Shown in pieces: positions 298 through 51,743 of a DNA stretch of 64,000 bases. This DNA is from Octopus vulgaris (lineage: Eukaryota). The stretch is taken from the NCBI GenBank assembly GCA_951406725.2, contig OX597818.1, positions 81,778,001 to 81,842,000 on the forward strand, read 5' to 3'. Below the pieces are notes generated by a model. That model was not told the DNA's origin. It worked only from the letters and a program-made list of their open reading frames with translations, and ran no database searches. A program made the position numbers and the translations under genes. Within the stretch, counting starts at the first letter, position 1, and the number at the start of each line of letters is the position of its first letter.

Positions 298-2040
298 AGG
301 AACAACCTCAGAAAATACCGGAATGGCTCATGGATGTGAAACGGCAAACCCACAAAATTATAGACTGATAACTTGTCTCCCAGCAATTTACAAAGCCTTT
401 ACTGCAATAATATCGCAGAGAATGGACAAACATCTGGTAAAACAAAACCTGTTTCCAGAAGAGCAGAAGGGATGTTGGAAGGGTTCATACGGATGTAAAG
501 ATCAGCTATTGATCAATAAAGCCATAACTGAAGACAGTCATAGGAAAAAGAAGGGTCTCAGCCATAGCTCGGATCGGTCATCGAAAGGCTTTTGATAGTA
601 TTCCCCACATATGGATTCCAGAAACACTTGCCATGAACAAGTTAGCACCCATAATTATAAAATATATAAAACATTCCATGAATAAGTGGCAAACAGTGCT
701 ACGGCTCCAGACAAAAGACGGTCTCATAAAAATCAAAGCCGACTCCATTAGAAAAGGAATTTTCAGGGAGATGCGCTGTCACCACTCCTTTTATGGTTGG
801 CTCTGACACCTTTATCTGATATGCTAAATAGAATTGATTGTGGATACAACTGTTACGACAAAACAATCAACCATCTCTTGTATATGGATGATTTAAAACT
901 GTATGCTACAAATGATAAACAGCTGGAAACATTACTACAGACATTACATGGATTTACCAAAGAAATAAACATGGAATTTGGCTTAGAAAAATGTGCCACA
1001 ACAATTTTGAAAAGAGGAAAACTAGTTAAGAGTAACAGCATCACAGTAAATGAAATAAGAGAATTAGACCAAAGCCAGACATACAACTACTTAGAAATCA
1101 ATGAACTAGATACGATAAAACACACACAAATGAAAGGGAAGATAAGAAAGGAATACTATAGACGAGTTAGATTAATACTGAAAACAGAGCTCAATACGAA
1201 AAAAGAAGATAATTAACATCAATACTCTAGCCATCCCAGTTATAAGTTACTGCTACAATATACTTAAGTGGACTCTAAATGAACTAATCAAAATAGACAG
1301 AAAAAAACAGGAAAAACAATGACAGGATTTAGGATGCACCATCCAAAATCTAACATAGAAAGATTATATATAAAACGTATCGAAGTTGGTAGAGACCCAC
1401 TGCTAGAAAATTATTACAAAATAACCACCATAGGATTACAGAAATACCTACTATAGAAGGAAGGAAAACTGATACAGACAGCCACAAAACACGAACAAAA
1501 CAAAAAAAATGTGTTTTGTCTTTAAGGAATCTGGCAAATACAAGAAAGAAGTCATAGTACCTAACAACTATGAAGAAAAACAGAAATAACAAAAGCTGTA
1601 TAACAACCGAAATCCAAACTAAAACTGGAACAGTAACGGATCATGATATAACGATGACAAAAAAACTCTCCTACCTGGCAAATATTTGGTTAAGCTAAAC
1701 AGAAAAGAAATAGACAAAGTAGAATCACAACAACGGTTGAGAAGCTTATAACTTAACGCAAAGACTGAAGAATTTTTAATTGCAGCACAAGATAAAAGCC
1801 TTCCCACCAGAAATCACCAAAGACACATAAGGAAAAGAAATACAAGTAATTGCAGAATATATGGTGATGGAGAAGAAACAATAAATCATAAAACAGCTCC
1901 TACAAAAAGTTCGTCTCTTAGGCATAGTAAGGATTATCAGAAGGGTTCTAAGCACTTGCAAGACTGCTGAAAATTTGTGGACACCTAAGGTTACATCCAC
2001 ATAAAATCTAGCAAGAATAAACCTAAGCCAAACCAAAATA
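298..2040 (+). mobile_element. Degenerate, 5'-truncated R4/Dong-like non-LTR retrotransposon (RT plus C-terminal remnant)
   Basis: NYRLITCLPAIYK, EEQKGC..GS.GCKDQLLI, GIFQGD.LSP, NHLLYMDDLKLYA and MEFGLEKC motifs over frameshifted ORFs 119..595 and 797..1216; AAQD and C..ETINHI-like remnants near 1780-1890; degenerate TAA repeats after the 3' end. Confidence 0.85.
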
Positions 2041-2814
2041 ATGATAGTAATAGTAGTGGTAGCAGCAGTAGTAGCAGTATTAATTTATATCGTTTTACTT
2101 GTACTCTCTGAACGGTCATGTCTCAATCTGCTCGAGGAAAAACTTATTTTGATTCCAGGATTAAGAATTATGATTCCATTCCTGGGACTGTGGAAACGTT
2201 CTTTATTTTTTTCTAGATATTTTAAACTGTTTCCTCGTTTTCTCCATCCACCCAATGGCAATGTTTATTCATATTGCAAGATTGTAGCATGAAAACTTGC
2301 AGGTATCTAAGTTGAAACAAAGTCACTTACATAATAAAAGAAAAAAAAATTGCGTGTTGGAAGCATTAGGCTTATGGGAAAGGAAACAATATGAATAGCA
2401 ACAGTAATATAAAACAGCAATAACAAGACCACCATCACTACCACCACCACCACCACAACCACCACCAACAACAACAACAACTACAGTAACACCAATAACT
2501 ATAGTAAAAGGTCATTTTCAGAGTTCTCGGTCAAAAGATGAAACTTTGATTGAGTAAGCTTAAATCTTTAACGTTTAAACTGGCCATATCCAGCCCTAAC
2601 ATTATATCTGTTCTATGTTCGGACCAGCCGGATTTGGCCTTTCACACCTTACCATGACATTCTAAGAATATACAATCACATCATCAACATCTCAAAGCTA
2701 CGAGATAATGAATGATTAATTCAAAACAATGTGAATTCAAAGCATGAACTTTACATTTGACAGAATAATCAGAATGCTACAGGTTTAAAGAGGAATCACC
2801 ACTTCTCAACAATG

Positions 2815-3020
2815 TACGAAGTGATATCAAATATTTCCCAGACTAGTTCTGCATGACGCCAACAGATAGCATCACACGGTTGCATGCGCAGTGAGAGATA
2901 GCAGTGACCTTCTTGAGGTAGTGTGCCGAGTGATAGCGCTGTGTTTACTTCGCAAGTTGTGAGATCTGTGTTTTCGTGATCATATGTATACTGTAGTCTG
3001 CGATTTCGTCATGGACAGGA
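2815..3020 (+). mobile_element. Degenerate mariner-like 5' end (TIR and 5' UTR)
   Basis: Starts TACGAAGTGATATCAAATATTTCCCAGACTAG, resembling TACGAGGGG..TCAAAAAGTT mariner TIRs; no partner TIR found. Confidence 0.4.
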
Positions 3021-3788
3021 ACAAAGAGCCAAGGTGGAAGGGGGCTCCGGAAATACTTAGGTTACAGACAGGGATATTAACAAGGGATTCGCTGTTTTGT
3101 ATGTCGTACTGCTACTGATTTTTGCAGAATACCACCGGTTAAAACTAAAATAAATACCAGAGCAGCATGAAATGAAACGGGTGTGATTTAATTTTTCAGC
3201 ACATGGCAATCCAGAGCTGTGGACAGCAGTAATTTCCCGTCGTTTAGAGGTTGAAGATGAGAGAAAAATGTGGGGGTGGGGCAGAGAGAAGAAAATAGGG
3301 TATGCGAGTGCAGAAAAAAATTGAACAAGATGTGAGTCTGAACTAAACGTTGATACGAAATGCAGACTGCATTCTCTTTCATCTAGAATAAGACGAGTCA
3401 ACTACTTAATAATTGATGTTGAAATGGGTATATACATACCAGAAGACTCGGGATCAGTATTTCTGGTAGGGTGAGTCGGTATGGGGGCTAAGAAGCGAGC
3501 GGGACAAATTGCTATGTTTAATGAAATTATGATGGTTATTAATTTTTACGTTTGTTCAACACCATTGTGCAGAAATGGATTGTATACTAATCGGTATTAG
3601 TGGCTACAGTTGGCGTTGTTTAATCTCTGAGGGATTTTGATGCAGCCGATCAATAACGTAACAGGTTCCAACTGTAACAATCCCGTCTTTTATTCGGACA
3701 TAGTCTATTGATGCAAACTCTATTTTGTTCTATTTATTACTGAACATACCGGGACGAAAACATGTTCAGTAATATTTTAAGTGTGGCA

Positions 3789-3977
3789 AGGCGGGCAGCT
3801 GGGAGAATCGCTAACATGTCGATCTAAATGCTTGGAGGCATTTCTTCCCTCCTCAAGTTCTGAGTTCAAATTCCGCCAAGGTCGACTTTGCCTTTCATCC
3901 GTTCAGGAATGCTAGGGCAGATGTTACCGAGTTAGCACTCCTCTAAAATTGTCGGTCTTGTACCAGAATTTGAAACC
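3789..3977 (+). mobile_element. tRNA-derived SINE with Deu/Nin-like central domain
   Basis: GGCGG..AGCTGG head, B-box GAGTTCAAATTCC, then GTCGACTTTGCCTTTCATCC; further copies near 12530-12790, 32977-33159, 39265-39390, 40640-40835 and 42690-43035 (all minus strand). Confidence 0.75.
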
Positions 3978-5104
3978 AATATTTTAACGTGTGGTGATAA
4001 TATTTGCCAGTTGGAGAAGTACTGCCCAAGTGGACAAATAAAGATCACAAAAGTGAAGCAAATGAAGTACAGCACATTTATCCTTGACTGAGTTTACAAA
4101 TCAGGATAGTTATACATACTGTCAATTTATGAATACACATATGAAGGAAAACAGTTTTGCAATACATGATGATACTGTAATATTTTTATCAGGTATGGCT
4201 AAGAAATGTATGGATATCTTTACAGAAATAGCTGTCTATTACACCATTTATGTCAATTATAATAGACACATTTCTTATGTGTCAAAATGTCTTCAATTCA
4301 AAAGCTATGTCAAAGTGTTTTCTTAGCTTTCCAGCTTGATTCTGCACAGTATTTCAGGTCTTTTTACATTTCTTTCAAGGTCTACGAGTGGCTTTATGAA
4401 TAAGAAGCTCGCTTTGAAGCCACTTGGTTTCGGGTTTAGTACAACTACACGGAGAATTTGAGGAGGTGTCTTCGTTAGAGCCTCGAGCCAACCAACTCCA
4501 TGCGAATGAATTTCGTAGACGGAAACTCTGTGGAGAACAATGCGTAAATGTATGTATTTATATATACACAAGGTCAGATGGTTAAATTGTCGCCATTTTA
4601 TATTCTTAGTTTCGCGCTTGCGCATCGTTTGCTGTTGGTTTTGTCGACAACACAGTATAGTAGGGTCAGTTGGGCGCCATCTGTGAAAAAAGCAGCACTA
4701 TGATGAAATTCACTTTGCCATAAATTTGGAAACGACTTGGCATTCGCGCCAAAAGCTCCAATGGGGAAATTTCAGAATTTTTGTGTCAATCTGAAAACAG
4801 TGCAATCTGAGGACATTGCAGTCTGAGGATATGTACCGAAAGTGATAAAATATATATAGTGTGTGTGTGAGTGCGCGTTCGTGTGTGTCTATGTGCATGT
4901 CACTATTTTTAATGGCCGCGTCTGTATAATTTCAGCCTCAAAATGTCGATCTGTATCAACCTTCTATGCTTTCTAATAACACATCCGCTTTAGCATACCA
5001 AGATAAACATTTCAGGCTACAACATATCATACCAATCTCTTCCTTGCAATTGTTAATCTTCTACAAAACTAGAACCAGATTTGGCAATTTTACTACTACC
5101 TCTT

Positions 5105-5407
5105 GTTTGTTCCTTCTTGAATCATGCCTGTCTCATACGGGCGGGTTTCCCGGTTTCCTTGGCGTATAGGTTCCCCCACCTGGTCGGCACGCCGCTCCGT
5201 CGCAGGTGGGCTGCAAGATGCATGATGAAAGAGTGAGAGAAAGTTGTAGCGAAAGAGTCAGCAGAAGTTCGCCATTACCTTCTGCCGGAACCGCGTGGAG
5301 CTTAGGTATTTCGCGCATAAACACACACATCACCCGGTTTGAGATTCGAACTCGCGATCCCTCGACCGCGGGTCCGCTGCTCTAACCACTAGGCCATGTT
5401 CCCCCAC
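5105..5407 (-). mobile_element. Full-length tRNA-derived SINE with 13-bp TSD
   Basis: Minus-strand head TGGCCTAGTGGTTAG (A-box) and GAGTTCGAATC (B-box); ACTACTACCTCTT flanks both sides (5092-5104 and 5408-5420). Confidence 0.9.
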
Positions 5408-6135
5408 ACTACTACCTCTTACAATATGAAAAACAGTCACCTTGCAAAAGAATTTAATCAAGCATTACGTTTCTCCGCATCCAAATTGCCTCTCTCAGAA
5501 CAGATTTTGCGCCCACTTGTTGTTAATAAACAAATCACTCTTCATGACTGCATACCATAATTTGTCGAGATCTCTGATGAGCAATCTCAAGCCCGCAGGA
5601 GATTTTCAATGGAATACATAATGAATCATTCCCTTCCTAGCTTTTAGGACCGCTGCCTGCATGATGATGTTCATGTCTGTTCTAAATCCATGTTATTTGG
5701 GGAGAAAATCACTGATGTCCAAGTAACACACACATGCCTATCATATACACACAAATTCACATGTAAACACGCGTACAACTCTCATCAAAATACAAAAGCA
5801 AATAAATATATTCTCACTCAATCCATGTCATTATACTGGCAAGGACTTATACAAGTCTAAGGCAAACCCACCAGCTATAAATACGACAGATATGTTCAAT
5901 TCTGAAGTAGTTCTGGATTTCCTAGGGGAACTACTAAATCACTAACCATTGCGAGGTATTGAATTCGCAAAAACGTACAATAAATTTTTGCTTTACGTAT
6001 GTATTGAAGCCTTGATTTTTACTTGTACCAGTGCATGGTACATAATATGTAGTACAGATTACTTAGTCTTCTTCCTCTGTCTCATTCGCTCTAACTGTCT
6101 GTCAGTCTGTCTGCATACATGTCCGTCTATCTCAG

Positions 6136-6174
<39 letters not shown>

Positions 6175-6194
6175 CACTGTATATATATACATAT

Positions 6195-6252
<58 letters not shown>

Positions 6253-6613
6253 TGATAGATAGATAGAATATACAAGCACACATTCCTACATAAAAGGTGC
6301 ACAAACATACATATGAATTAATATATAAAAGTATCTTAATATATACATACATACATACATGCATACATGCATACATACATACATACATACATACATACAT
6401 ACATACATGCATGCGTACATATACAGACACACGCACACGTAGACACAAAGACACGCATTTATATATATATATACATACAGTCATATGCTGGCATAAATGT
6501 ATGCATACGTATATACCAGAGTTTCTATATATGTGTCTTTCTTTTTGCACATACTTATACATGTGTGTTTATGTGTGTATATACATATATTTATATGTAT
6601 ATGCATATAAATA

Positions 6614-6664
<51 letters not shown>

Positions 6665-7062
6665 GTGTATATATATATATATATATATATATAGATATAT
6701 ATATTGGTGCTTCTGAACGCTTGAATGTGTCTCTACCGATGCATCTTTCATTATATAGATGTGATCGAATATTCTAATTACATGACAAAGAAATATAATA
6801 TATGTCTTTATGCTAGAATGCCTGTGACAGCATTAATGTGAAATTCGATCTAATCACCGTTGATAGATTGTTCATCATGCACGTCTTTGTGAACACGAAT
6901 CTTCCGGAGATTGAAACCCGAGCCAAGGCTTCATCCGAGCCGTACTGTTTTAAATATTTCTTTCTTTGAATAGCTAATAATTTTTATAACGAAATACTTT
7001 TGCTGCATGCAAATTCAAAGAAGAGCAATAAAAGTTTCTCCCCCATTCTTTGTTTGCCTTCT

Positions 7063-7099
<37 letters not shown>

Positions 7100-7285
7100 G
7101 CCCCCATCTCTCTCTATCTATCTATCTATCTATCTATCATATTACCTCTCTATTTCCACCACTCTATCTCTCTGCCCCTACCTTGCTATTCCTTTATGTG
7201 TTCGTGCATTCATGCATGTATATACGTACATACGTGAGTACGTACAAATGAATATGTGTAGGCATGTATTAATGCATCTATCTAT

Positions 7286-7346
<61 letters not shown>

Positions 7347-7360
7347 AATCTATCTATCTG

Positions 7361-7415
<55 letters not shown>

Positions 7416-7857
7416 GTCTGTCTGTCTTGTTATTTCGCTACCTCAGTGCCTACACCTCTTGTACTTCTTTCCCAGTCTCTATACTATATTGTCTCTGCCT
7501 CTTATATTCTCTAGCACTTTCTAGCACACCTCCAGCATGTAGTTGCATTCTCTGTCTCATCATCTCACTCACACTCTTTCCCGCTGTCTGTATATATGAG
7601 AAAAGTATAGACAGACATATATACATAGATGTATTATCAAATATAGCTTTGATATACATGTGGAACGATAAAAGAAATCTCTAAACTACGAGTATAGTGA
7701 TAGAGATCCTCAGTTCAAATTCTCTGGACATTGATAAAAATTATTAAAATTTAATATGCCAATGAATTTTGAAGTAATAAAATCATTTATACCTGAAACA
7801 ATTACAGGAGTATAAATAGTAGTTTTCTTAATTTACAACTATATTCCAGATCCATGC

Positions 7858-9591
<1,734 letters not shown>

Positions 9592-9592
9592 A

Positions 9593-9667
<75 letters not shown>

Positions 9668-9698
9668 GTCTGTCTGTCTGTCTGTCTGTCTGTATGTA

Positions 9699-9775
<77 letters not shown>

Positions 9776-10079
9776 GCCTTTCTGTCTGTCTGATGTCTGT
9801 CTGTCTAACTATCTATTATATATGTGTGTATTATATATTTGTGTCTTTGCACTTCTGTTTCACTTTCACATCGCTTGAAAAGCTGTGGAGGTTGTTTTTG
9901 TCACTTTAGGCAACCGGTTCGGCAAAAATGAGATCTGATAGAATAAGATCTGATTTTTAAAAATACTACACCGGTGTTGAGTTGTTCGAGAAAATCTATC
10001 GAGACAGTGATCCAGCTTGGCCGTAGACCAATGATTGAAGCAAATAAATGATAATTGTATAATTTTACCATTTTTTTAT

Positions 10080-10790
10080 TCTTATGTCTGCTAGTGTTGT
10101 TCCTTATGCAATATATTCTAAATATGAAGGCATGTTTGTATAATGTATTTTTGTAATAATGAGCTTCAGGATTGAAGGTCTCATCGTCAGAGGATAAGAT
10201 GAATAAGGAGTAGTTCATTCAAAATATCTAAGGGTTACTTAGAATTGATTGGAAGCTGGTACAATTTCAGTATATATCAATATATATTTGAAGGTATATT
10301 TACGAAATTAACACAGGGCCGTATCTGCTATGACGTTTAAGTCGAACTCATTCAATTGATTGTTAATCTTTTTCATACCGTTATTCTTACTTCACAAAGT
10401 AGTCCATCATCACGGTATAGACCGAATTCTACATAGCTGCACCTCTTCTGAAGTCTACGGTTAACAATTCCATTAATTAAAAACATCCAGTTATATTTTA
10501 CGAAAGCTTTTGTACATGATAGAAACACCTAGATTATTAATTATATAAAATAATTAACTTCCAGTAGCAATTTATCTGATTCTAGTGAAGTGTACGTCAG
10601 AGAGCATTATCCTGATGTACCCTGGCGAATGATTTTACTGATATTTTATCAAGAGCTTTCTCTAATTTAATTGATTCAATGACATGTGTAAAAAAGTTGA
10701 TTATTCTCTTGAAGAGCCATGGATGCGTAGAGTTTGTATTCTAGCACAGCAGAAAAAATAACTAGTGGTATTTAGTCGTATATCTTTACT
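10080..10790 (-). pseudogene. Degenerate Naiad-like Penelope RT fragment
   Basis: Reverse complement of about 10395-10428 reads E-F-G-L-Y-R-D-D-G-L-L; downstream LSSDDETFNPEAHYYKNTL (ORF 9901..10218) matches the thumb region. Confidence 0.65.
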
Positions 10791-10914
10791 CTTCGAGTTC
10801 AAATGGTGATCGTTGTTGTTTCAGATTTCATTCTCTGTCAGTCAATGAAGCAACATCTATCAAGTAAATGCTTCGTTCAAATAGGACTATATCATTCTCT
10901 TAGAGCTTCTTTAA

Positions 10915-10952
<38 letters not shown>

Positions 10953-10958
<6 letters not shown>

Positions 10959-11360
10959 TAATTAAATTAGAACGAATGGACCCATTAGTATAATTATACC
11001 TAAAATTACCAAGAGGTTAAGGAGATAGACAAAGAACATGCTGTTTCACTCCAGTAAGTTCTATGCTAGAGTGAGACAGCATATTCTTTGTCTATCTCTT
11101 AACCTCTTGGAGATTTTAGGTATAATTAAATTCTATGTCTTTGTGCAGCTGAAGATTGCTCTGCATTTGAAATTGATATAATGATTGAATTATTCAATTA
11201 AAAATGCAGTTGCATGAAACGATCGTACTGCATTACCTCTGGATATCCTTGTTGCGTATTTTGATTTTAATCACATTACTTTGAAATTGTATGGATACTA
11301 CCGTACTAAATTCTGGTGCCTCATCTTAAGTACCATATTCATCTGAATCTAAATTTTTGC
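10953..11360 (+). mobile_element. PLE pLTR-like unit in a TA tract, with 5' fold-back hairpin and HHR
   Basis: Inverted arms of about 65 bp spanning 10991-11128; homologous to 45325-45520; flanked by (TA)n on both sides. Confidence 0.75.
11143..11233 (+). ncRNA. Type I hammerhead ribozyme
   Basis: GTGCAG-CTGAAGA-stem II (CTGCATTT...AAATGCAG)-GAAA-CGATCG (palindromic stem III)-TA-CTGCAT. Confidence 0.8.
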
Positions 11361-11367
11361 TATATAC

Positions 11368-11483
<116 letters not shown>

Positions 11484-13146
11484 GTGAGATAGATAATTAT
11501 ATATACGCACACACATGGACATAATTATATATATACACTTACGTGTTTGCATTGTCGTTCTATTCTAATGCAAAACGTTTACGCAGAAAGTATTTCTGAG
11601 ACCGTAATCCGTTTCTACACGCGAAAAGATGTTGGAGCTCAATGCAATTTATGTGTTGTCAGACAAACATGTATCCGAGAAAGAATGTGGAACAAAATTA
11701 AAATTATATTTATAAGTGTGTGGGTCTCCTGCTTGAAAGAGATTAAAAGAGTTACTAAGTATGCTTCCAATCGTTTGAAAAGGTAATAATTTTTTAAAAA
11801 GAAATTTAAGTTAATTTACAAAATCTATTTAATTGTAGAGATTGCGTGATTTGTGGTGAGTTACAAAAGTCATTTCTGCCCATATACGTATGTTATACGT
11901 TGGTAAGCTTAGGATAAATAATTTATACATGCTCTAGGTCTATTTTACCCAATTAGGATTTTTATTAGATTATTTGAATCATATATTACATTTTGAAAGG
12001 TGCTTGTTTGGACCTTTTATAAGGAGAAAACAAATGCTTCGGACAGAGTGTTAATATATTGCATTAAAAATAAACATTCCAATAAAATGCACTTTGTTTC
12101 GTTCGAAGACAATTCAATGAGTAAATAAATAACTAGGAGTAGCCCCTTATGTACACATATACAGATACGCAGAGAGCAATATAAAAGAGTAGACTGATAG
12201 CGTGACATGGTTGAGACGACTAACAGGCTGGGTGAGATGAGATTTTGTGAAAGTAAGAGAAGTAGTGTTGATGGTATAGATTATGATGGTGACGAGAATA
12301 AGAATTAACGCCATTAATTGTGGTTAGGGAATGACAGCAGTGTAGCGATTGAAAATGAAGAAAGAGATGATGATTTAGAGCATAGTGAAAGAAAGAAAGG
12401 AGAGGGTATAAAAACATTGGGATCTAGTTTGGGATGTATCATTTAGATTTTTATGCAATTGTTTATATTAGCTGCATCTAATTATGTGTTGTTGAATACA
12501 TAACGTAAAGAAAGGGAAGAAATAATCCCTTTTAATACAGTCACAAGGCCTGAAATTTGGGGGAGGCGGATGATCGACTACATCGACCCCAGTGCGTAAC
12601 TGATGGTAGGGGTTAGTAGTTGCTAAAATATTTGGGACTCGTTCCTTGATTCATAATTTATTTTGTTAATCCTGTGGAAACGACACCTAAAGAGTGACTT
12701 AGGCGAGATTGGAAACCGGAACGTCAAGGGTCAAAAATATACCGTAAATAATTTCTTCCGACACTGATTCGTTGTCTCCAAACAACCAAAGCAACCGACT
12801 TTTGCCTACTGTAACACACACCACGCACACTCACACAGAAACACACAAACACATATACACGTAAACACAGGGAGAAACCCAAAGAAACACACACACACAC
12901 ACATATACGCACACAGAAACACAAACACATACGCATATACTTGCTTCAGTTATTGGACTGTGGCCATACTGGAACACCGCTTTGAAGGGTCGATACCAGT
13001 AGATTTTTTTCTCTGAGCCTGGTACTTAATTTATCGAGGACGTAAACAAGACAACAACGGTTATCAAACAGTAGTGCTGGACAAACAGAAATACAGACGT
13101 TGACAGTGATACACACAAATACATGCATACACACACATACTCACCC

Positions 13147-23162: not shown

Positions 23163-24452
23163 CGAGGGGCGTTGAATAAGTAATGCCTCTGACCCACTTC
23201 CCATACCATAGCAGTAGAGCAACGAAACTTGGCATGGTTATTATTCTTTTTCTACATAGGAAGTACCAAGTGTTACGCATTTCTCCCATTGGTTGATACA
23301 GCTCTGAAGACCGTTTTTGTAGAAGACCCCAGCTTTGACCTCCAACCACGACGTGACTTCAGAAATCAATGCTGCATCATCTGGGAAACCCTTTCCTTTC
23401 AAAAACAACTTCATGGCTGTGAAGAGGTGAAAATCAGAGGGTGCAAGGTCAAGGGGGATGGGGGAGGAGTTCATAGCCGCACTCCTGCGCTTCTGATCTG
23501 GCGACAAGCGAGTTGTGGACCGGAGCGTTATCCTGCAGGACGAGGATGCATTTGCTGATCTTGCCCCGCTTCTTGATTTTGATAGCTTCTCTTAATTTCC
23601 TCAAAAGTGAAGCATAATAGGCTCCTGTAATTGGGGTACCCTTTGCCAGGAAATCTGTCATCACTACTCCGTCCTGATCCCACAAGACTGTGAGCATGAC
23701 CTTGCCAGCGGAGGGCTGCACCCTTGCCTTCTTTGGAGGAGGTGAGTCACGGTGCTTCCACTGCATTGACTGGGCTTTGGTCTCTGGATCATAGTGATGG
23801 ATCCAGGTTTCATCCTGTGTAATCAGTCTTTTGAAAAATTTTGACTCATCTTCTTGGCACATCTCCAAATTCAGCCTCGAGCACTCGATGCGTTCTTGCT
23901 TCTCGAAAGGTGTGAGCAGCCTGGGAATCCATCTGGCAGACACCTTTTGCATATGCAAATGGTCATGAATGATAGTTTTCACACACCCGGTACTGATCTT
24001 GACCTCATGGGCTACTTGGCGAATAGTTATGCGTCGATCTTCCAAAATGGCAGCCTCAACTTGACGGACAGATGGCTCATCAATGGCAGAAGTGGGGCGA
24101 CCAGATCTGGGAGCTGTTTCCACAGAGTTCCGACCATGTTTGAATTTACGATGCCAGCGTTTTACAAGGTCATATGATGGGGCATCATCACCATAAGTTA
24201 CTTTGATTTCATCAAAAGTCTCCCGTGGTGTTCGTCCTTTCAAATACAAAAACCGGATCACTGCTCGACACTCAACAGGCTCCATTTCACACTTGACTCA
24301 GTTCAAACACCTGTAAATCAGAAACCACAGTTAGTTCAGAGCTGTAATTTTCCACTTAATCTATAGAGATATGAATAAGTCCACATGCAAAATGTCAGCT
24401 GGATCAAACAGCTGCAAATAGGTCAGGGGTATTACTTATTGAACGTCCCTCG
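23163..24452 (-). mobile_element. Near-complete mariner transposon (about 1.29 kb, irritans-like) with TA TSD
   Basis: TIRs CGAGGGGCGTTGAATAAGTAATGCCTCTGACC and GGTCAGGGGTATTACTTATTGAACGTCCCTCG; TA at 23161-62 and 24453-54. Confidence 0.95.
23241..24285 (-). pseudogene. Mariner DD34D transposase with one frameshift
   Basis: HTH N-terminus, WIPRLL, TQDETW, QDNAPVH; frameshift at about 23455 in HPP/(YSP)DLAPSDFHLF joining ORFs 23449..24285 and 23241..23507. Confidence 0.93.
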
Positions 24453-28311: not shown

Positions 28312-29036
28312 TAAATATACATGTATCATATATATACATATATCTGTGTGTTTGTGCGCTCGCGCTCTTGTAATTGTACTGCGGCACTTCTTCGCGACAT
28401 TACTGCCTTTGTTCTTGTGGCTTATTGTTGTACTAGTTGTTGTTGCTGTTATTGTTGTTACCACCTGTTGATATCTCCTATGCTATTACTGCTTTTCCTC
28501 TTCCTCATAATTTTGTCGCCGTCACTCTCCTCCTCATCCACGTTCCTCTTAATATGATCGTTGTTCTTTTAATCATTTTTATCACAAGTTTATCGCAGTC
28601 ACTGTATTTGTTCTTTGACTTTTTGTCGTTATTGCTCCTATTGTTGTTGTAGTACTTATTGTTGTTTCATTGCTATGCGCTTGCATTGATATTGTTTTTG
28701 TCATAGTTTTGTTCCCGTTGCTTTTATCGTAGCTGTTGTTTGTGTTGAATTTTTGCTTACCATTGATGTTTTGCATCAACTGCTAACTTACAGGCGTCAT
28801 TACTTTTTCTTGCTGCTTCTTCTACATCTTCCATTGTGCTGTATGTCCCTTTGGAGTTCGGTAAGCAGATACAACCACCAATTAATATCATCCCCTATCA
28901 TTTCCTCAAATTTCTTTCAAAGACAACCGGCATCAACTGAAAACATATGAATGACTTCAATCTGAATATAATGTATTAGAGTTGAATACAAGAGAGCTTG
29001 ATCATTACACGTGCGCGCGCACACACATACACACGT

Positions 29037-29168
29037 GTGTCCCTTTCTGTAGAAGAGCGTAGGCTCGAAACGTAAAATACTTTTTCTATCCCTGAGCGTT
29101 ATACTAATACATCTGTTTGTTTTGTACACCACCTGTTTCCGTCTTTTGTTTTTTTCGTAAAAACTCCC

Positions 29169-29170
<2 letters not shown>
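29037..29170 (+). mobile_element. Short pLTR-like repeat with a variant minimal HHR, ending in a TA tract
   Basis: TTT-CTGTAGA-AGAGCGTAGGCTC-GAAA-CG-TA-AAA; a near-identical copy lies at 44786-44918. Confidence 0.6.
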
Positions 29171-29211
<41 letters not shown>

Positions 29212-29299
29212 GTAGGAGTAGTAGTAACAGAAAAGAGGAATTTCGATTATCACTACGTGGTGAATTGTAATGTATATAAGAAATTAAAAAAGGAAAATA

Positions 29300-30925
29300 C
29301 GCACACTTACAGTCTTTTTACGGCCTTCCTAAAATGCACAAGAACAAGATAATCAATGAGGCCTGCAAACAACCACCAGGCAAATATATAAATATCCAAA
29401 CGCCAGAAGACTTGACTTTAAGACACATTGTAGCTAGGCCAGCCTGTGAAACCCACCGCCTAAGCAATTTTCTAGGCATCCTACTGAAATCCTTGCTGAA
29501 ACACATCAAAAGTTTCATTAGAGATGAATTTGACATGCTAGAATACCTACCAAAAACAATTAATGAAGAGGCAATATTGGTTACCCTCGATGTTATCAAT
29601 CTTTACACCAGCATCCCCCATGACTATGAAATAAAAGCAATTAAATTCTGGTTGGAAAAGCATCCCGAAGTCCTCCGGGAACGCATAAACTAGATCTTTA
29701 TTATTGAATCCTTAAAATTTATACTTCAGAACAATTATTTCCTATTTGATGACACATGCTATCGTCAGATGCGGAAATGTGATGGGGAGGAAAGCAGTTC
29801 CTTTTCTTTTGAACCTAATGATGGGTTATTTTAAATTCACCTTATATGAAGTATCAAATGATTACCCATTTTACCTCTGCATAAGAGGAACTTGGACGAG
29901 ATACCTAGATGACTGCTTTATCATTTGGAAGGAGAATATCGACAAACTTTTGGACTTCAAACCAACACTAAATGATATAAATAGTAACATTCAATTCACA
30001 ATGGAATATAACAAAGAACAACTTCCATTTTTAGACATCATGATAAAAAAAGTTAACAATCAATTCATAACTGACATTTATTATAAACCAACTGATTCAA
30101 AACAATATCTTCTCTTTAACTCATGCCACCCGAAACACATCAAAATAAACATCCCTTTCAATTTAACAAAAAGGATTTGCACAATAGTGTCTGATAGAAC
30201 AACTCGGCACCTTCGTCTTCAAGACATGAAAACAACGCTTATTGAAAGATAATATCCATCCTCACTTATCGACGAGGGAATTAAACGTGCTAAACAATTA
30301 GACACAAATAACTAAGAACAACAAAACATAACACCATACCTCAACTCAAAACATTACTATTTATATCAACACACAACCCCAGAAACAGTGAGGCATTCAA
30401 CACTATTGTGCAAACTCTTCATTTACCAACTAGAGATCCTAGAATGAACGACATCCTGAAAACGCACAAACTTATCAAATGCAAAAAACAAGACAAATCG
30501 CTAAAGAGACTACTAACAAATGCGAAGCTTTACAAAACAACCACGAAATCAGCGGTTGAAAATGTGGCCGCCCAAACTGTGGAACCTGCCCCAACCAGTT
30601 TGAAGGCTCGGATTTCCTTTTCAAACAAGGACAGAGGTTTACAATTAAAACTAGTTTCACTTGTGCCTCTGAGAACCTAATTTATGTAATAACCTGCTCG
30701 GGTTGCGGACACCACTACATTAGACAAACGTGTATGACCTTGAGAAAGAGAACCACTCTACGTAAAGAGCAAATCCGTTTCCCGCAATACGGACAAATTT
30801 CTCTCAGTGAACATATAGAAAAATGTGCAGATAACATCAAGCCAAATTTCAGCCTTCCCTTTCTACCAGTGCAAAGACACGAATAACCAACTTTTATGAA
30901 AAATACCATAATCTAACATGTACAC
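29300..30925 (+). mobile_element. Degenerate Neptune-like Penelope element (RT, Cys linker, GIY-YIG)
   Basis: FYGLPKMHK, LDVINLYTSIPH, WTRYLDDCFIIW, DIYYKPTDSKQYL..SCHP.H, CGRPNCGTCP linker and NLIYVITCSGCGHHYI; several stops and frameshifts. Confidence 0.92.
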
Positions 30926-31114: not shown

Positions 31115-31123
31115 TATATATAT

Positions 31124-31181
31124 AATTATAATTAAGGGTATCTAAGAGATACCACCATAGTAGATACCCTTAATTATAATT
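31124..31181. repeat. Mini fold-back carrying the ACCCTTAATT terminal motif, next to a TA tract
   Basis: AATTATAATTAAGGGTATCTA (31124-31144) and TAGATACCCTTAATTATAATT (31161-31181). Confidence 0.8.
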
Positions 31182-31281
31182 TTGATAATAATTATTACCT
31201 ATGAGGCTTTTATTCCCATGCTAGCCACCTGATATGATCGGTATTTTAAATAATGATCTTATCCTTATATATATAAATTTA

Positions 31282-34280: not shown

Positions 34281-35258
34281 TCATTTTTCATTTCATTTCA
34301 TCTAGTTTCATCTGACAGGAAGAGGTCCAGCTTTATTTTGAAGACATCTGCATCCACCCTATGCAGGTCTCTCAAGTCCTTCGGGAGGATATTGAAGAGC
34401 TGTGGACCTCTGAAGCCTGGGCTATTGCAGTATCTTGTCCTACATCTTGATGGCAAATTTGGAGTCCTTGGCACTATGCAGTGGCACCGAGTTCTAGTAT
34501 TTGTGTAACTCTCGATGCCAAAGTTTGGGACAAGTCCTTCCAGGATCTTCCTCATGTATATTATGGCATATCTTTCTCGCCTACGCTCTAAGGAATAGAG
34601 TCTTAATCTCTTGAGTCTTTCCCAATAACTTATATGCTGCATAGAAGCTATCTTCTGCGTGTAACATCGTTGGATTGCCTCAAGTTCTGAGATTAATTTG
34701 ACATTGGTTGGTGACCATAGCTGAGAGCAATAGTCAAGGTGGCTTAGGACAAGTGTCCTCCAGAGGACCATCATGGTTTCCTGGTCTCTTGTTCTAAAAG
34801 CTCTAAGAATCTATCCGGTCAGCCGCCTAAATTTAATTGCCAATTTAGCATCATGCACATGAAACTTTGCATTATTACTCATGTAAATACCCAGGTCTCG
34901 TACTGATTGTGCCTCTGGGATTGCAATTCCTCCAGGTCCAGTGTATTTCTTGGGTATTTCATTTAGTTTTGCATGCTGATAGCACAAACCTTGAAACTTT
35001 TCAGCATCGAACTGCATGATATTCTTTTCAGCCCACTTGTATTTTCGTCCAGCCCACATTGCAGGTGCATAGTGTCTTCAGGGTTCTGCATTACATGTGA
35101 AACTTTTGTATTATCTGCATAACTTATGATCGTGGCTCTGTGTGGCTGAGGGCATGTCTGAGAAGGTCATTATGAACAGCAGTGGTCCGAAAAGAGTGCC
35201 TTGCGGAACACCGCTCACTATTTGCGTCTCATTGGAGGTGGCTCCATTGGCTATTACC
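34280..35258 (-). mobile_element. CR1-group LINE RT 3' fragment
   Basis: SGVPQGTLFGPLLFI, MQFDAEKF, VRDLGIY, LVLSHLDYCSQLWSP and SYWERLKRLRLYSLERRRERY. Confidence 0.88.
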
Positions 35259-44652: not shown

Positions 44653-44963
<311 letters not shown>

Positions 44964-45099: not shown

Positions 45100-45519
45100 G
45101 AGAAAGTTAGTCTTATATCTGTTCCTGGGATATTAGGGATATCACTTCATCGTAGATTATGTGAGATGGTTAAATGGAGGGACATATTAGAGTTCAATAT
45201 AAGGAGTTATTTTCGAAAAGGAACGAAAGAAGGCGTATGTAGGGATGTAAGAGAATGAATGTTGAAATAAAAATAAAAAAATATATAAAGAGGTTATAGT
45301 TGAGTTAAAACTGTGATGTTGTTGATAGAGCATGTTCTTTGTCTATCTACTTATCCCCTTTGTGGTTTTGGATAATAAGAAAACTATACAAATGAATCCT
45401 TCAAATTGAACTAAATTCTATATTTTATGCAGCTGAAGATTGCTCTACATTTCAAATTGATGGAATCGCATGAAAAGATCGTACTGCATTACCTGGATAT
45501 CCTTGTTGCTTATTTTGAT

Positions 45520-45520
<1 letters not shown>
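45100..45520 (+). mobile_element. Naiad-like PLE 3' end plus pLTR with HHR
   Basis: RLCEM.KW..ILEF...KRNE..GVCR remnant (C.LC..EK...LN.R.E...C.H type); HHR at 45427-45489 ATGCAG-CTGAAGA..GAAA-AGATCG-TA-CTGCAT, homologous to 11143-11233. Confidence 0.65.
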
Positions 45521-45551
<31 letters not shown>

Positions 45552-45789
45552 TAAGGGTAGAAATTGATATTTATCAATTAAGACCAGTGGTCTAGCATAT
45601 TAAAAAAGAATCCGAAGATTAAAATATTTATATATACCAATTAAGGACTGAACACGAAAAGTGGACAGTCAACATGCTAGATATAGACGTCAAATCGTCA
45701 TTCTCCACAAAAGATTATGTTCTCAGATCAAACTCAACACAAAACCATAGCAATAAACAAGTGAAAAATATACGAAATAAAATAATTAC

Positions 45790-45854
45790 CCATGTACTAA
45801 CTTAGTTTCAGCTGTTATTTTCCGCAAGGAAAACTGCAGCCATCATCAGCATGG
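45790..45854 (-). ncRNA. Type I HHR, array A copy 1
   Basis: CCATG-CTGATGA-TGGCTG..TTTTCC-TTGC-GGAAAA..CAGCT-GAAA-CTAAGTTAG-TA-CATGG. Confidence 0.88.
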
Positions 45855-46320
45855 TCCGTTATAAATGTAATTTGCTGGACTAAATGCAAACACGATACCG
45901 AAATATCGCGCGCATGGAGTTCAGCCTATTACATTTGAATATATCTTTCAAATGCCTTTACTTTGGCGCGTTGAGACCCGAGAAAACTAGCCTGCAGCTA
46001 ATAATTAGCAGCAGTTAATTTATCGGTTAGAGAACATTTATTTATATAAAATTAATTAAGGGTAGAAATTGATATTTATCATTAAGGGTAGAAATTGATA
46101 TTTATCAATTAAGACCAGTGGTCTAGCATATTAAAAAAGAATCCTAAGATTAAAATATTTATATATACCAATTAAGGACTGAACACGAAAAGTGGACAGT
46201 CAACATGCTAGATATAGACGTCAAATCGTCATTCTCCACAAAAGATTATGTTCTCAGATCAAACTCAACACAAAACCATAGCAATAAACAAGTGAAAAAT
46301 ATACGAAATAAAATAATTAC

Positions 46321-46385
46321 CCATGTACTAACTTAGTTTCAGCTGTTATTTTCCGCAAGGAAAACTGCAGCCATCATCAGCATGG
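46321..46385 (-). ncRNA. Type I HHR, array A copy 2
   Basis: Identical to copy 1. Confidence 0.88.
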
Positions 46386-46993
46386 TCCGTTATAAATGTA
46401 ATTTGCTGGACTAAATGCAAACACGATACCGAAATATCGCGTGCATGGAGTTCAGCCTATTACATTTGAATATATCTTTCAAATGCCTTTACTTTGGCGC
46501 GTTGAGACCCGAGAAAACTAGCCTGCAGCTAATAATTAGCAGCAGTTAATTTATCGGTTAGAGAACATTTATTTATATAAAATTAATTAAGGGTAGAAAT
46601 TGATATTTATCAATTAAGACCATATTAAGTCTATATCTAGCATGTTGACTGTCCACTTTTCGTGTTCAGTCCTTAATTGGTATATATAAATATTTTAATC
46701 TTCGGATTCTTTTTTAATATGCTAGACCACTGGTCTTAATTGATAAATATCAATTTCTACCCTTAATGATAAATATCAATTTCTACCCTTAATTAATTTT
46801 ATATAAATAAATGTTCTCTAACCGATAAATTAACTGCTGCTAATTATTAGCTGCAGGCTAGTTTTCTCGGGTCTCAACGCGCCAAAGTAAAGGCATTTGA
46901 AAGATATATTCAAATGTAATAGGCTGAACTCCATGCACGCGATATTTCGGTATCGTGTTTGCATTTAGTCCAGCAAATTACATTTATAACGGA

Positions 46994-47058
46994 CCATGCT
47001 GATGATGGCTGCAGTTTTCCTTGCGGAAAATAACAGCTGAAACTAAGTTAGTACATGG
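46994..47058 (+). ncRNA. Type I HHR, array A inverted arm
   Basis: CTGATGA at 46999-47005, GAAA at 47039-47042, predicted cleavage after GTA at 47053. Confidence 0.88.
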
Positions 47059-47228
47059 GTAATTATTTTATTTCGTATATTTTTCACTTGTTTATTGCTA
47101 TGGTTTTGTGTTGAGTTTGATCTGAGAACATAATCTTTTGTGGAGAATGACGATTTGACGTCTATATCTAGCATGTTGACTGTCCACTTTTCGTGTTCAG
47201 TCCTTAATTGGTATATATATATATATAT

Positions 47229-47500
47229 AAATTAGTAAATAAATGGCACAACTAAGTACCGATATTTACTGGAAATAGCGAACGTAAAAATACGACGCTA
47301 ATGTGTAGCTTCACCGCGTATGTATTAGCAAAAATGCGTGTGTGCAACAAATTAGAGAAAAAAAACCGTCTTACCTCCAGGGAGAACATCTGAAAGATAA
47401 AACACCCGCAAAATGATAATGTGGTACCTGCAGGTTTCAGGTTTTACAAGATATGTCTCTCACCCATATTTTGTTTTACCTTCATCAGCCAAACATATGA
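47229..47500 (-). mobile_element. Third HHR-bearing unit (single, 5'-truncated) between arrays A and B
   Basis: TA-flanked, with its 3' end at the left TA tract; terminal hairpin GGTAC..GTGCC resembles GGTGC..GTACC at 11326-11345. Confidence 0.65.
47421..47492 (-). ncRNA. Type I HHR
   Basis: TGG-CTGATGA-AGGT...ACCT-GAAA-CCTGCAGG (palindrome)-TA-CCA. Confidence 0.8.
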
Positions 47501-47807
47501 TATATATTTGTATGTATATATATAATTAATTAATAAGGGTGAGAGAATTAGATACTAATTTAATAGTATATTTATTCCACACCAAGTGGCCTAGTGCTAC
47601 GAGAAACCTGGATTATTATAATATTTTATAACATATTACAATATTTTCACAAAATAAATATAAGAGAGTGTTCACTATATTGATCACTCTAGCACCAGTT
47701 AATCCAAGAGGTTTCAACCACGAAAAATACATGTTTCCCATGAAAGCCGGTACGACTGTTAGCTCACACGGACAGGGCAAATAAAAAATAACAAAAATAC
47801 AGATTAT

Positions 47808-47885
47808 CTTGGGACAATTGTTTCGCTATTAATGAATTAAATGTAATATTACTTACAGCAATCCATTTGTAGCTCTTCAGCCAAG
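47808..47885 (-). ncRNA. Type I HHR, array B (further minus-strand copies at 48343-48420 and 48878-48955)
   Basis: CTTGG-CTGAAGA-GCTA...TAGC-GAAA-CAATTG-TC-CCAAG; canonical core with a GUC cleavage triplet. Confidence 0.92.
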
Positions 47886-49297
47886 GCTATCTTGATGAAA
47901 TCCACTCAATCACACGCCAGATTTTACCATAACGATAATTACGCGTGCGGTTCAATTGATTACATCGGACGTTATAATTCAAATGCCCCAACCAACAGCG
48001 CGCCAAACTCTCACGGAAAACAAAATACAGCATTTAGAAATAAATGCAGCATAATTATAATTAATTAATAAGGGTGAGAGAATTAGATACTAATTTAATA
48101 GTATATTTATTCCACACCAAGTGGCCTAGTGCTACGAGAAACCTGGATTATTATAATATTTTATAACATATTACAATATTTTCACAAAATAAATATAAGA
48201 GAGTGTTCACTATATTGATCACTCTAGCACCAGTTAATCCAAGAGGTTTCAACCACGAAAAATACATGTTTCCCATGAAAGCCGGTACGACTGTTAGCTC
48301 ACACGGACAGGGCAAATAAAAAATAACAAAAATACAGATTATCTTGGGACAATTGTTTCGCTATTAATGAATTAAATGTAATATTACTTACAGCAATCCA
48401 TTTGTAGCTCTTCAGCCAAGGCTATCTTGATGAAATCCACTCAATCACACGCCAGATTTTACCATAACGATAATTACGCGTGCGGTTCAATTGATTACAT
48501 CGGACGTTATAATTCAAATGCCCCAACCAACAGCGCGCCAAACTCTCACGGAAAACAAAATACAGCATTTAGAAATAAATGCAGCATAATTATAATTAAT
48601 TAATAAGGGTGAGAGAATTAGATACTAATTTAATAGTATATTTATTCCACACCAAGTGGCCTAGTGCTACGAGAAACCTGGATTATTATAATATTTTATA
48701 ACATATTACAATATTTTCACAAAATAAATATAAGAGAGTGTTCACTATATTGATCACTCTAGCACCAGTTAATCCAAGAGGTTTCAACCACGAAAAATAC
48801 ATGTTTCCCATGAAAGCCGGTACGACTGTTAGCTCACACGGACAGGGCAAATAAAAAATAACAAAAATACAGATTATCTTGGGACAATTGTTTCGCTATT
48901 AATGAATTAAATGTAATATTACTTACAGCAATCCATTTGTAGCTCTTCAGCCAAGGCTATCTTGATGAAATCCACTCAATCACACGCCAGATTTTACCAT
49001 AACGATAATTACGCGTGCGGTTCAATTGATTACATCGGACGTTATAATTCAAATGCCCCAACCAACAGCGCGCCAAACTCTCACGGAAAACAAAATTATT
49101 ATTAATTATAATTATTAATTAATTATAATTATGCTGCATTTATTTCTAAATGCTGTATTTTGTTTTCCGTGAGAGTTTGGCGCGCTGTTGGTTGGGGCAT
49201 TTGAATTATAACGTCCGATGTAATCAATTGAACCGCACGCGTAATTATCGTTATGGTAAAATCTGGCGTGTGATTGAGTGGATTTCATCAAGATAGC

Positions 49298-49375
49298 CTT
49301 GGCTGAAGAGCTACAAATGGATTGCTGTAAGTAATATTACATTTAATTCATTAATAGCGAAACAATTGTCCCAAG
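49298..49375 (+). ncRNA. Type I HHR, array B inverted arm (further copies at 49833-49910 and 50368-50445)
   Basis: CTGAAGA at 49303-49309, GAAA at 49359-49362, palindromic CAATTG, predicted cleavage after GTC at 49370. Confidence 0.92.
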
Positions 49376-50605
49376 ATAATCTGTATTTTTGTTATTTTTT
49401 ATTTGCCCTGTCCGTGTGAGCTAACAGTCGTACCGGCTTTCATGGGAAACATGTATTTTTCGTGGTTGAAACCTCTTGGATTAACTGGTGCTAGAGTGAT
49501 CAATATAGTGAACACTCTCTTATATTTATTTTGTGAAAATATTGTAATATGTTATAAAATATTATAATAATCCAGGTTTCTCGTAGCACTAGGCCACTTG
49601 GTGTGGAATAAATATACTATTAAATTAGTATCTAATTCTCTCACCCTTATTAATTAATTATAATTATGCTGCATTTATTTCTAAATGCTGTATTTTGTTT
49701 TCCGTGAGAGTTTGGCGCGCTGTTGGTTGGGGCATTTGAATTATAACGTCCGATGTAATCAATTGAACCGCACGCGTAATTATCGTTATGGTAAAATCTG
49801 GCGTGTGATTGAGTGGATTTCATCAAGATAGCCTTGGCTGAAGAGCTACAAATGGATTGCTGTAAGTAATATTACATTTAATTCATTAATAGCGAAACAA
49901 TTGTCCCAAGATAATCTGTATTTTTGTTATTTTTTATTTGCCCTGTCCGTGTGAGCTAACAGTCGTACCGGCTTTCATGGGAAACATGTATTTTTCGTGG
50001 TTGAAACCTCTTGGATTAACTGGTGCTAGAGTGATCAATATAGTGAACACTCTCTTATATTTATTTTGTGAAAATATTGTAATATGTTATAAAATATTAT
50101 AATAATCCAGGTTTCTCGTAGCACTAGGCCACTTGGTGTGGAATAAATATACTATTAAATTAGTATCTAATTCTCTCACCCTTATTAATTAATTATAATT
50201 ATGCTGCATTTATTTCTAAATGCTGTATTTTGTTTTCCGTGAGAGTTTGGCGCGCTGTTGGTTGGGGCATTTGAATTATAACGTCCGATGTAATCAATTG
50301 AACCGCACGCGTAATTATCGTTATGGTAAAATCTGGCGTGTGATTGAGTGGATTTCATCAAGATAGCCTTGGCTGAAGAGCTACAAATGGATTGCTGTAA
50401 GTAATATTACATTTAATTCATTAATAGCGAAACAATTGTCCCAAGATAATCTGTATTTTTGTTATTTTTTATTTGCCCTGTCCGTGTGAGCTAACAGTCG
50501 TACCGGCTTTCATGGGAAACATGTATTTTTCGTGGTTGAAACCTCTTGGATTAACTGGTGCTAGAGTGATCAATATAGTGAACACTCTCTTATATTTATT
50601 TTTAT

Positions 50606-51170
<565 letters not shown>

Positions 51171-51324
51171 ATTCGCTATTATCATCTCTCGGATCACTGC
51201 TCTTTTTCTTCTTTGGTGCACATTGCTAGTGGCGCGGCCATACTTACATTGTGAAGCCAGAAAGAAAAATGTTGCGATCAGGCTTAACCTTCTATCACGT
51301 GACAACAATAGTACCAACTATAAG

Positions 51325-51402
<78 letters not shown>

Positions 51403-51431
51403 CATATATATGTATGTATGTATATATACAT

Positions 51432-51519
<88 letters not shown>

Positions 51520-51667
51520 GCTATTATCTCTCGGATCACTGCTCTTTTTCTTCTTTGGTGCACATTGCTAGTGGCGCGGCCATACTTACATTGTGAAGCC
51601 AGAAAGAAAAATGTTGCGATCAGGCTTAACCTTCTATCACGTGACAACAATAGTACCAACTATAAGC
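51171..51667 (-). repeat. Two near-identical copies (about 150 bp) of a diverged mariner 5' segment, inverted relative to 50820-50960
   Basis: 51171-51325 matches 51516-51667 apart from a 3-bp indel; each is followed by (CA)n(TA)n. Confidence 0.8.
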
Positions 51668-51683
51668 ACACACACACACACAC

Positions 51684-51743
<60 letters not shown>

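Follow-up and report, generated by a model that had tools for sequence, protein, structure and literature searches.

Penelope-like elements (PLEs) leave a characteristic insertion structure. As described in the available parts of PMC8557442 and PMC3846280, they form partial tandems with an adjacent inverted, 5′-truncated copy, mostly in the head-to-head orientation, and they carry an optional 30–40-bp tail and target microsatellites or (TA)n. The mechanism producing tandem and inverted PLE insertions with tails is stated to be an open question in PMC8557442, within its available part. According to the available part of PMC11167929, a purified PLE enzyme—a predicted dimer—nicks AT-rich DNA and extends both strands, and two internal start sites on the RNA delimit the tail. 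In the same in vitro system, hammerhead mutations were without effect on insertion, unprocessed RNA was the main substrate, and the start sites were the same for both strands. The retrozymes are derived from PLE pseudo-LTRs, according to bioRxiv 10.64898/2026.07.22.740005, which mentions neither palindromes nor tails from its abstract to its Discussion. The copying of a circular RNA into more-than-unit, multimeric cDNA has been proposed in PMC4209133, PMC7229834 and PMC7761336, in the parts of these papers that are available.

We analyzed a 64,000-nucleotide stretch of the Octopus vulgaris genome (hereafter called the “window”), in which the focal element occupies positions 47521–50602. The element consists of two head-to-head arms, with 2.95 and 2.79 units of 535 bp and 100% identity among the units. 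The left arm (47521–49096, − strand, 1576 bp) has its outer end, corresponding to the RNA 3′ side, at a site designated S2, at unit position 292 as counted from the predicted hammerhead cut. The right arm (49112–50602, + strand, 1491 bp) has its outer end at a second site, S1, at unit position 162. The inner break points of the arms differ (unit positions 322 and 277), and the centre joint is a 15-nt filler at 49097–49111, with 11 nt copied from the adjacent sequence. The S1-to-S2 stretch is present at the left end only, where it forms a 130-bp tail (47521–47650, − strand), and the arms pair from 47651 onward. The initial annotation had described a 3.1-kb palindrome of six identical 535-bp units, about three in tandem followed by about three inverted. 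The order, the identity and the fold-back are all borne out, while the number of units is 5.7 rather than six, and the palindrome is not perfect, owing to the one-ended 130-bp tail and the unequal inner break points. It had also placed TA tracts on both sides. This is right for the right flank, a long (TA)n target extending from 50603 to 50744, and only partly so for the left flank (47498–47520), which is TA-rich, short and imperfect. No target duplication is discernible at the focal locus.

Each unit contains a type I hammerhead motif. In the right arm, the motifs lie on the + strand at 49298–49375 (core 49303, with the predicted cut after 49370), 49833–49910 (core 49838) and 50368–50445 (core 50373). 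In the left arm, they lie on the − strand at 48878–48955 (core 48950), 48343–48420 (core 48415) and 47808–47885 (core 47880). The motif comprises a 5-bp stem I, a 4-bp stem II with a long structured loop, and the GAAA-CAATTG-UC segment with its minimal palindromic stem III. Only 1 of 2000 shuffled units matched the motif scan, and the reported presence of one canonical type I hammerhead per unit agrees with the six motifs found; Rfam at its gathering threshold returned zero matches across the window. The longest ATG-initiated open reading frame (ORF) in the unit encodes 57 amino acids, as expected from the earlier description of the units as ORF-free. The focal element therefore lacks the RT plus GIY-YIG ORF of an autonomous PLE, and its pure tandem arms, with no protein coding and no LTR layout, are those of a non-LTR retrozyme.

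The predicted 535-nt RNA, extending from cut to cut (49371–49905, + strand), folds far better than its shuffled counterparts (z −6.4). The strong fold is confined to the + strand, as the predicted circular fold has an energy of −151 kcal/mol for the sense RNA and −111 kcal/mol for the antisense RNA. This sense fold is retained among the relatives described below: seven of seven divergent haplotypes beat all 12 of their respective same-spectrum random mutants. Structure conservation assessed one pair at a time did not reach significance (p 0.12), with 28 of 76 pair-breaking as compared to 32.7 expected. Within the hammerhead, the free core position 7 is A, C or G. The outermost pair of stem I is mismatched in the older form seen most often, whereas the young subfamily and some older loci have it paired, in two different ways.

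Next, we investigated the distribution of the unit, hereafter called family A. A one-unit search of the 2.8-Gb genome yielded 745 candidates, 40 of which were scored, and the 150 matches listed are 98–100% identical. Genome-wide, exact patterns detected 2381 hammerhead joints as well as 877 TA-joined S2 ends, and the dispersed, TA-flanked copies that the initial annotation had proposed to look for thus exist. Family A is a young, dispersed, non-coding family with about 900 or more copies in (TA)n tracts, and the term “retrozyme-like”, applied earlier to the locus, suits its tandem type I hammerhead units, dispersal, TA targeting and absence of an ORF. Three sets of loci were analyzed, with a bias toward copies containing full units. 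The young set comprises the window and 38 loci drawn from 150 listed matches out of 252 (39 in total); the older set comprises 14 loci hand-picked from the first 100 pattern matches, favouring multi-hit clusters; and the short set comprises seven S2 ends with no nearby hammerhead match. We considered the last seven as potential coding elements, and rejected this idea when they proved to be short copies. The S1 pattern covers the young subfamily only (43 matches), and the S1 and S2 totals are accordingly not comparable. One locus, L056, on the 6.5-kb contig C120, consists only of about 12 tandem units, and is probably an unplaced piece of a long array.

A second family, B, which the initial annotation did not include, has an insertion about 300 bp upstream of the focal element (45545–47224). 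It is also head-to-head, with the S2 end on the left and the S1 end on the right. The family B unit is 505 bp long, or 531 bp in the window copy, because of a 26-bp duplication of the S2 region. The motif scan misses the family B hammerhead (46994–47058, + strand), due to a mismatch at the base of stem II, and we found it by eye and by folding. A search with family B gave 1699 candidates, and 20 loci were fetched; a guessed end pattern of the family B type gave no matches. Families A and B look unrelated at first sight, yet outside the hammerhead their alignment score is 190, as compared to 121 ± 13 for shuffles, and on this sequence comparison we consider them to be distant kin. The predicted folds of the two families are similar: a long rod ends in a branched domain, which contains both S1 and S2.

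Several smaller features lie around these insertions or resemble them. A 65-bp mini-palindrome in a TA tract (31118–31182) has two ends that both resemble the S2 end of A and B, and is possibly a minimal insertion of a related family. A hammerhead-like motif at 45412–45520 (+ strand) ends about 40 nt before a TA tract and has a related motif in L102 (9500–9620), while a lone hammerhead-like match at 56803 (+ strand), with a weak stem II, may be due to chance. An older, third family (1087 candidates), related to B with 73% over 119 nt, was encountered in L079 at 590–830; it frequently occurs as short head-to-head pairs whose ends are separated by about 95 nt. The window also contains what we take to be a mariner-like transposase frame and LINE remnants, at 23449–24297 (− strand), 107–1216, 7832–9217, 34298–34810 and 51171–51743, together with a 342-bp tandem duplication within the same set.

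How are the arms arranged in the other copies? Two arms, always head-to-head, are present at 27 of the 39 young family A loci; a further 11 have a single arm, and one is interrupted. The outer ends cluster at unit positions of about 161 (S1) and about 292 (S2). In 24 of the 27 two-armed loci, one arm ends at S1 and the other at S2; the remaining three have one unassignable end, and no locus has S1 twice or S2 twice. The same combination is present at all 11 two-armed loci of the older set, including L165, where the S2 end maps at 279 owing to a local variant, and at the single two-armed locus of the short set. L180 and L181, seemingly single short copies, each possess an S1-arm stub when read by eye. 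Family B follows the same rule at 14 of 14 two-armed loci, with its two sites about 92 nt apart. Altogether, all 53 two-armed loci are head-to-head, and all 50 assignable ones have one end of each kind, which would occur with a probability of about 2 × 10⁻¹⁵ if the ends were chosen independently (calculated for 49 loci). This one-of-each end rule appears not to be in print.

The outer flanks are in (TA)n in 69 of 76 cases, as compared to a background of 8.6%, when defined as (TA)4 within 30 nt. Informative target duplications of 14–18 nt—longer than the 4 bp that dispersed retrozyme insertions exceed—are present at 7 of 38 loci; swapped-flank controls gave 14 of 442, with the cut-off relaxed to 10 nt. 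These regularities bear on the simplest objection, that collapsed or folded-back reads created false multimers and palindromes during the assembly. The 100% within-locus identity, the knowledge of the focal locus from its assembly sequence alone, the small contig C120 with its exclusively tandem units, and the noisy or gapped sequence at L031 and L042 would all suit such an artefact. However, it would not generate one fixed end of each kind at 50 of 50 loci in two families, always head-to-head, nor would it generate target duplications, locus-private haplotypes and asymmetric centres. We therefore consider an artefact to be extremely improbable, and the focal structure is real.

In contrast to the outer ends, the inner ends are uniformly distributed over the unit (KS p 0.81), and the arms reach up to about 13 units. 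The centres of the 27 young two-armed loci comprise 13 overlaps, 4 blunt joints and 10 fillers, which are mostly local copies. At L063, the centre is an 86-nt filler in which a 21-nt stretch from nearby occurs three times, in alternation with runs of TA, and it resembles a repeated templated end-joining insertion. The second arm could, in principle, be a fold-back copy that the first cDNA primed on itself, along the lines of the self-priming idea in the available part of PMC3846280. The head-to-head symmetry and the shared haplotype would follow naturally from such a process, and the short overlaps at the centres are compatible with it. However, a fold-back copy cannot exceed its template, and forbidden length pairs exist at 2 of 24 family A loci (including the focal one) and at 4 of 14 family B loci, although later gain or loss of units could blur this test. 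Moreover, the lengths of the two arms are uncorrelated (rho −0.15), and the longer arm can end at S1 or at S2. A fold-back origin of the second arm is thus very unlikely, and the preferred reading remains the priming of the two arms at two separate sites.

The sequence variants provide a second line of evidence. In family A, the two arms have an identical haplotype in 17 of 20 same-locus pairs, as compared to 181 of 1691 cross-locus pairs. At 8 of the 39 loci, a substitution that is private within this small sample is fixed in all of the units covering it, and at five of these loci, including the focal one, it is fixed in both arms. Divergence from the window unit reaches about 9% among the older loci, and still the arms of each locus agree with one another; in L170, 12 fixed differences are common to both arms. 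To our reading of the literature, this sharing of haplotypes between arms also appears not to be in print. The presence of one end of each kind, together with the shared haplotype, points to the priming of both target strands on one RNA at two fixed sites. PLE-type insertion at two sites is in our judgement highly probable, and the derivation of both arms from one RNA is likely.

The units within each array are also homogeneous. The within-locus divergence is 0.45 per kb, and five arrays with 4.5–10 units have zero internal substitutions. Internal segregation among the units is seen at only 3 of the 39 young family A loci and 2 of the 14 older loci, although assembly polishing could mask some unit differences. 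The cut site is unaltered in 207 of 207 unit joints, and no ligation scar was found there when it was sought. These shared fixed haplotypes, clean long arrays and unchanged joints point to a monomer step followed by repeated copying, for which a circle is the simplest template. Multimeric reverse transcription, proposed earlier as the reason for the unit homogeneity, is accordingly the best explanation for the substitution-free long arrays and for the arms sharing their locus haplotypes.

The homogeneity could alternatively be acquired in the DNA, if short PLE-type insertions with one to two units per arm later underwent satellite-like expansion and homogenisation. Local amplification is suggested in the Discussion of bioRxiv 10.64898/2026.07.22.740005, and DNA-level changes do occur. 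In family B, arm-restricted variants are shared by two adjacent units (L115, L120, L126 and L127), indicating that arrays also change after insertion; L166 has variants shared by adjacent units as well, and the window's family B copy contains the 26-bp duplication. Family B also lacks the shared-haplotype contrast (6 of 10 against 185 of 455). Nevertheless, the five long arrays devoid of internal substitutions are difficult to obtain in this manner, and the more diverged arrays are not the longer ones (rho 0.11, p 0.53, 34 loci). In addition, both arms would have to grow separately at most loci, and the fixed outer ends would remain unexplained. We regard expansion in the DNA as the main source of the arrays as improbable, and return to multimeric copying of an RNA.

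Is the copied RNA a circle? The same two-site PLE insertion could use an uncleaved linear multimer, transcribed from the parent array, with the hammerhead as a passenger or a trimmer. Seamless unit joints fit this template equally well. Furthermore, L170 has a U4C change in all five hammerheads seen, which would favour a linear template, as the U4C variant is less active in vitro; it is nevertheless sufficient in vivo in a viroid (PMC3088659, in its available part). The active form of stem I has a probability of only about 7% in the predicted circle, which counts against our best explanation, as do the hammerhead independence and the lack of a strand difference in the available part of PMC11167929. 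On the other hand, copying a linear multimer can only shorten an array. A new substitution present in 5–10 units and in both arms, as in L039, L067 and the focal element, requires a monomer step, and the 19 distinct locus-fixed haplotypes among the 39 loci imply that this step is frequent. A linear template is therefore rather unlikely, and a circular template is moderately favoured.

No sequencing run is recorded as RNA; read coverage was examined in three of 16 runs guessed to be RNA and in one large unlabelled run, using one unit of each family and the spacer that separates them. In run X1, which is only guessed to be RNA, the depth on the family A unit is 1270–11800, as compared to 0–165 on the spacer; its contigs hold no information on strand, ends or circularity. 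The contigs cross the cut site at full depth, as expected from a circle and from a tandem or linear multimer alike, and the main contig, with a young haplotype, differs from the window unit at one site. Runs X2 and X3, also guessed to be RNA, cover the unit thinly, and the large unlabelled run is dominated by older variants. These data hint that the young subfamily is selectively transcribed.

We also searched for the enzyme that could move these non-coding units, using the degraded PLE ORF of the window and a second fragment as seeds, which led to three PLE families: an older one, a young one and a second coding one. The degraded ORF (29280–30900, + strand) retains RT and GIY-YIG remnants, and is 49–71% identical to the young family. 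The young coding PLE has a 753-aa RT/GIY-YIG frame and an upstream 367-aa frame, with copies that are 98–99% alike (L099–L110), and its CxxxxCxxC linker classifies it as Neptune-type by that motif. Its copies in (TA)n are arranged in the same way, and the tail is 51 bp long. Among its two-armed copies with both ends in view, four of six have one short and one tailed end, two have one odd end, and none has the same end twice. The motif scan detected no canonical hammerhead in its terminal repeat. Two solo PLE 3′ ends in the window (29036–29170 and 44785–44920) contain a minimal hammerhead-like motif, terminate in (TA)n, and resemble the 3′ repeat of the second coding PLE family. No extended DNA match was found between the A or B unit and 73 PLE-bearing loci of the three families, and none of the three is recognisable as the partner on this comparison. 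We rejected a family B-like stretch abutting the PLE ORF in L079 as partner evidence, since it belongs to a separate repeat family. No PLE ORF lies beside the arms at any of the arms examined. The combination of a tandem, an inverted copy and a one-sided tail is nevertheless the known PLE layout, also adopted by the coding PLE of this genome, and it indicates that the retrozyme is very probably mobilised by a PLE.

On this basis, we propose that family A is a non-autonomous non-LTR retrozyme moved in trans by a GIY-YIG PLE, a mechanism that we consider in its entirety to be somewhat better than an even prospect. The array would be transcribed on the hammerhead strand, as the reads faintly suggest. 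By analogy with known retrozymes, the hammerheads would cut the transcript into 535-nt monomers, which would be ligated into circles. A PLE protein, probably as a dimer, would then bind the structured S1/S2 domain.

Target insertion would start with staggered nicks about 14–18 nt apart in (TA)n, in keeping with the target and with the duplications seen in part of the copies. Both 3′ ends would prime reverse transcription on presumably the same RNA molecule, one at S1 and the other at S2. Each polymerase would then travel around the putative circle, for up to about 13 units, and stop at random. Finally, the cDNA ends would be joined by microhomology or by a local-copy filler, and this repair would produce the head-to-head palindrome with the one-ended tail.

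More tentatively, and with somewhat less than even confidence, we suggest that this may be the general mechanism of EN+ PLEs: a dimeric enzyme, one circular ribozyme-made RNA, two fixed sites, and two polymerases following each other. If this is true, then one mechanism would lie behind the pseudo-LTRs, tandems, head-to-head inversions and tails of all EN+ PLEs, and the arrays would provide evidence, from the genome itself, that circles made by animal ribozymes serve as true templates of transposition, under selection at the RNA level. The end rule and the haplotypes open two questions to testing: the origin of inversions and tails in PLEs, and the possible copying of ribozyme circles into the genome. 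For this purpose, family A supplies very young insertions in the hundreds; their template is 535 nt long, both start sites are mapped, and natural barcodes are present. New kilobase palindromes are also being added to the (TA)n tracts of this genome, and may give rise to long double-stranded RNA and to unstable DNA.

How does the focal family compare with the known systems? In L1 twin priming, both target strands prime on the RNA, which results in a 5′ inversion with a microhomology joint. The internal sites at which the second L1 primer anneals vary, and the two arms are derived from different portions of a linear RNA. In the focal family, by contrast, the two sites are constant, and one and the same unit is repeated in either arm.

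The metazoan non-LTR retrozymes of PMC7229834 and bioRxiv 10.64898/2026.07.22.740005 share more features with the focal element, among them non-coding tandem units, one type I hammerhead per unit and a low GC content (about 34%). Like the focal family, they range from dimers to multimers, are dispersed, have long target duplications, and co-occur with PLEs. The unit is 535 nt here, as compared to 170–400 nt in the available part of PMC7229834 and 51–972 bp in bioRxiv 10.64898/2026.07.22.740005. Two-armed copies with two fixed ends, which make up most of the copies examined here, were not found in the retrozyme papers; nor were the one-of-each rule and arm haplotype sharing found in the literature covered, with figure S9 of PMC7229834 and the older Penelope papers outside its scope.

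The non-autonomous MRC1-type PLEs of Chlamys are likewise non-autonomous, multicopy in head-to-tail orientation, and PLE-mobilised (PMC8557442, in its available part). They resemble their autonomous partner at the 3′ end, whereas the focal family has no extended match in the 73 PLE loci. In addition, their clade is said in the available part of PMC8557442 to be mostly without hammerheads, while the focal family has them.

The EN+ PLEs, as far as the available descriptions go, share with the focal element the tandems, the inverted 5′-truncated copy, the head-to-head orientation, the one-sided tail and the (TA)n target, as well as a hammerhead near the 3′ repeat and two internal start sites (PMC11167929). 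Unlike them, family A has no ORF, the entire element is the repeat, and each arm has up to about 13 units. The tail is 130 nt in family A and 92 nt in family B, as compared to 30–40 bp in PLEs, and while the tail is optional in the available parts of the PLE papers, it is present here at exactly one end of every assignable two-armed copy. The multimer-plus-fold-back layout, which the initial annotation did not recognise as a described architecture, is therefore accounted for by the PLE literature, with its tandem, inverted copy and tail. By its tested features other than homology to a partner PLE, the focal element is of a known kind, and its fold-back is a PLE signature.
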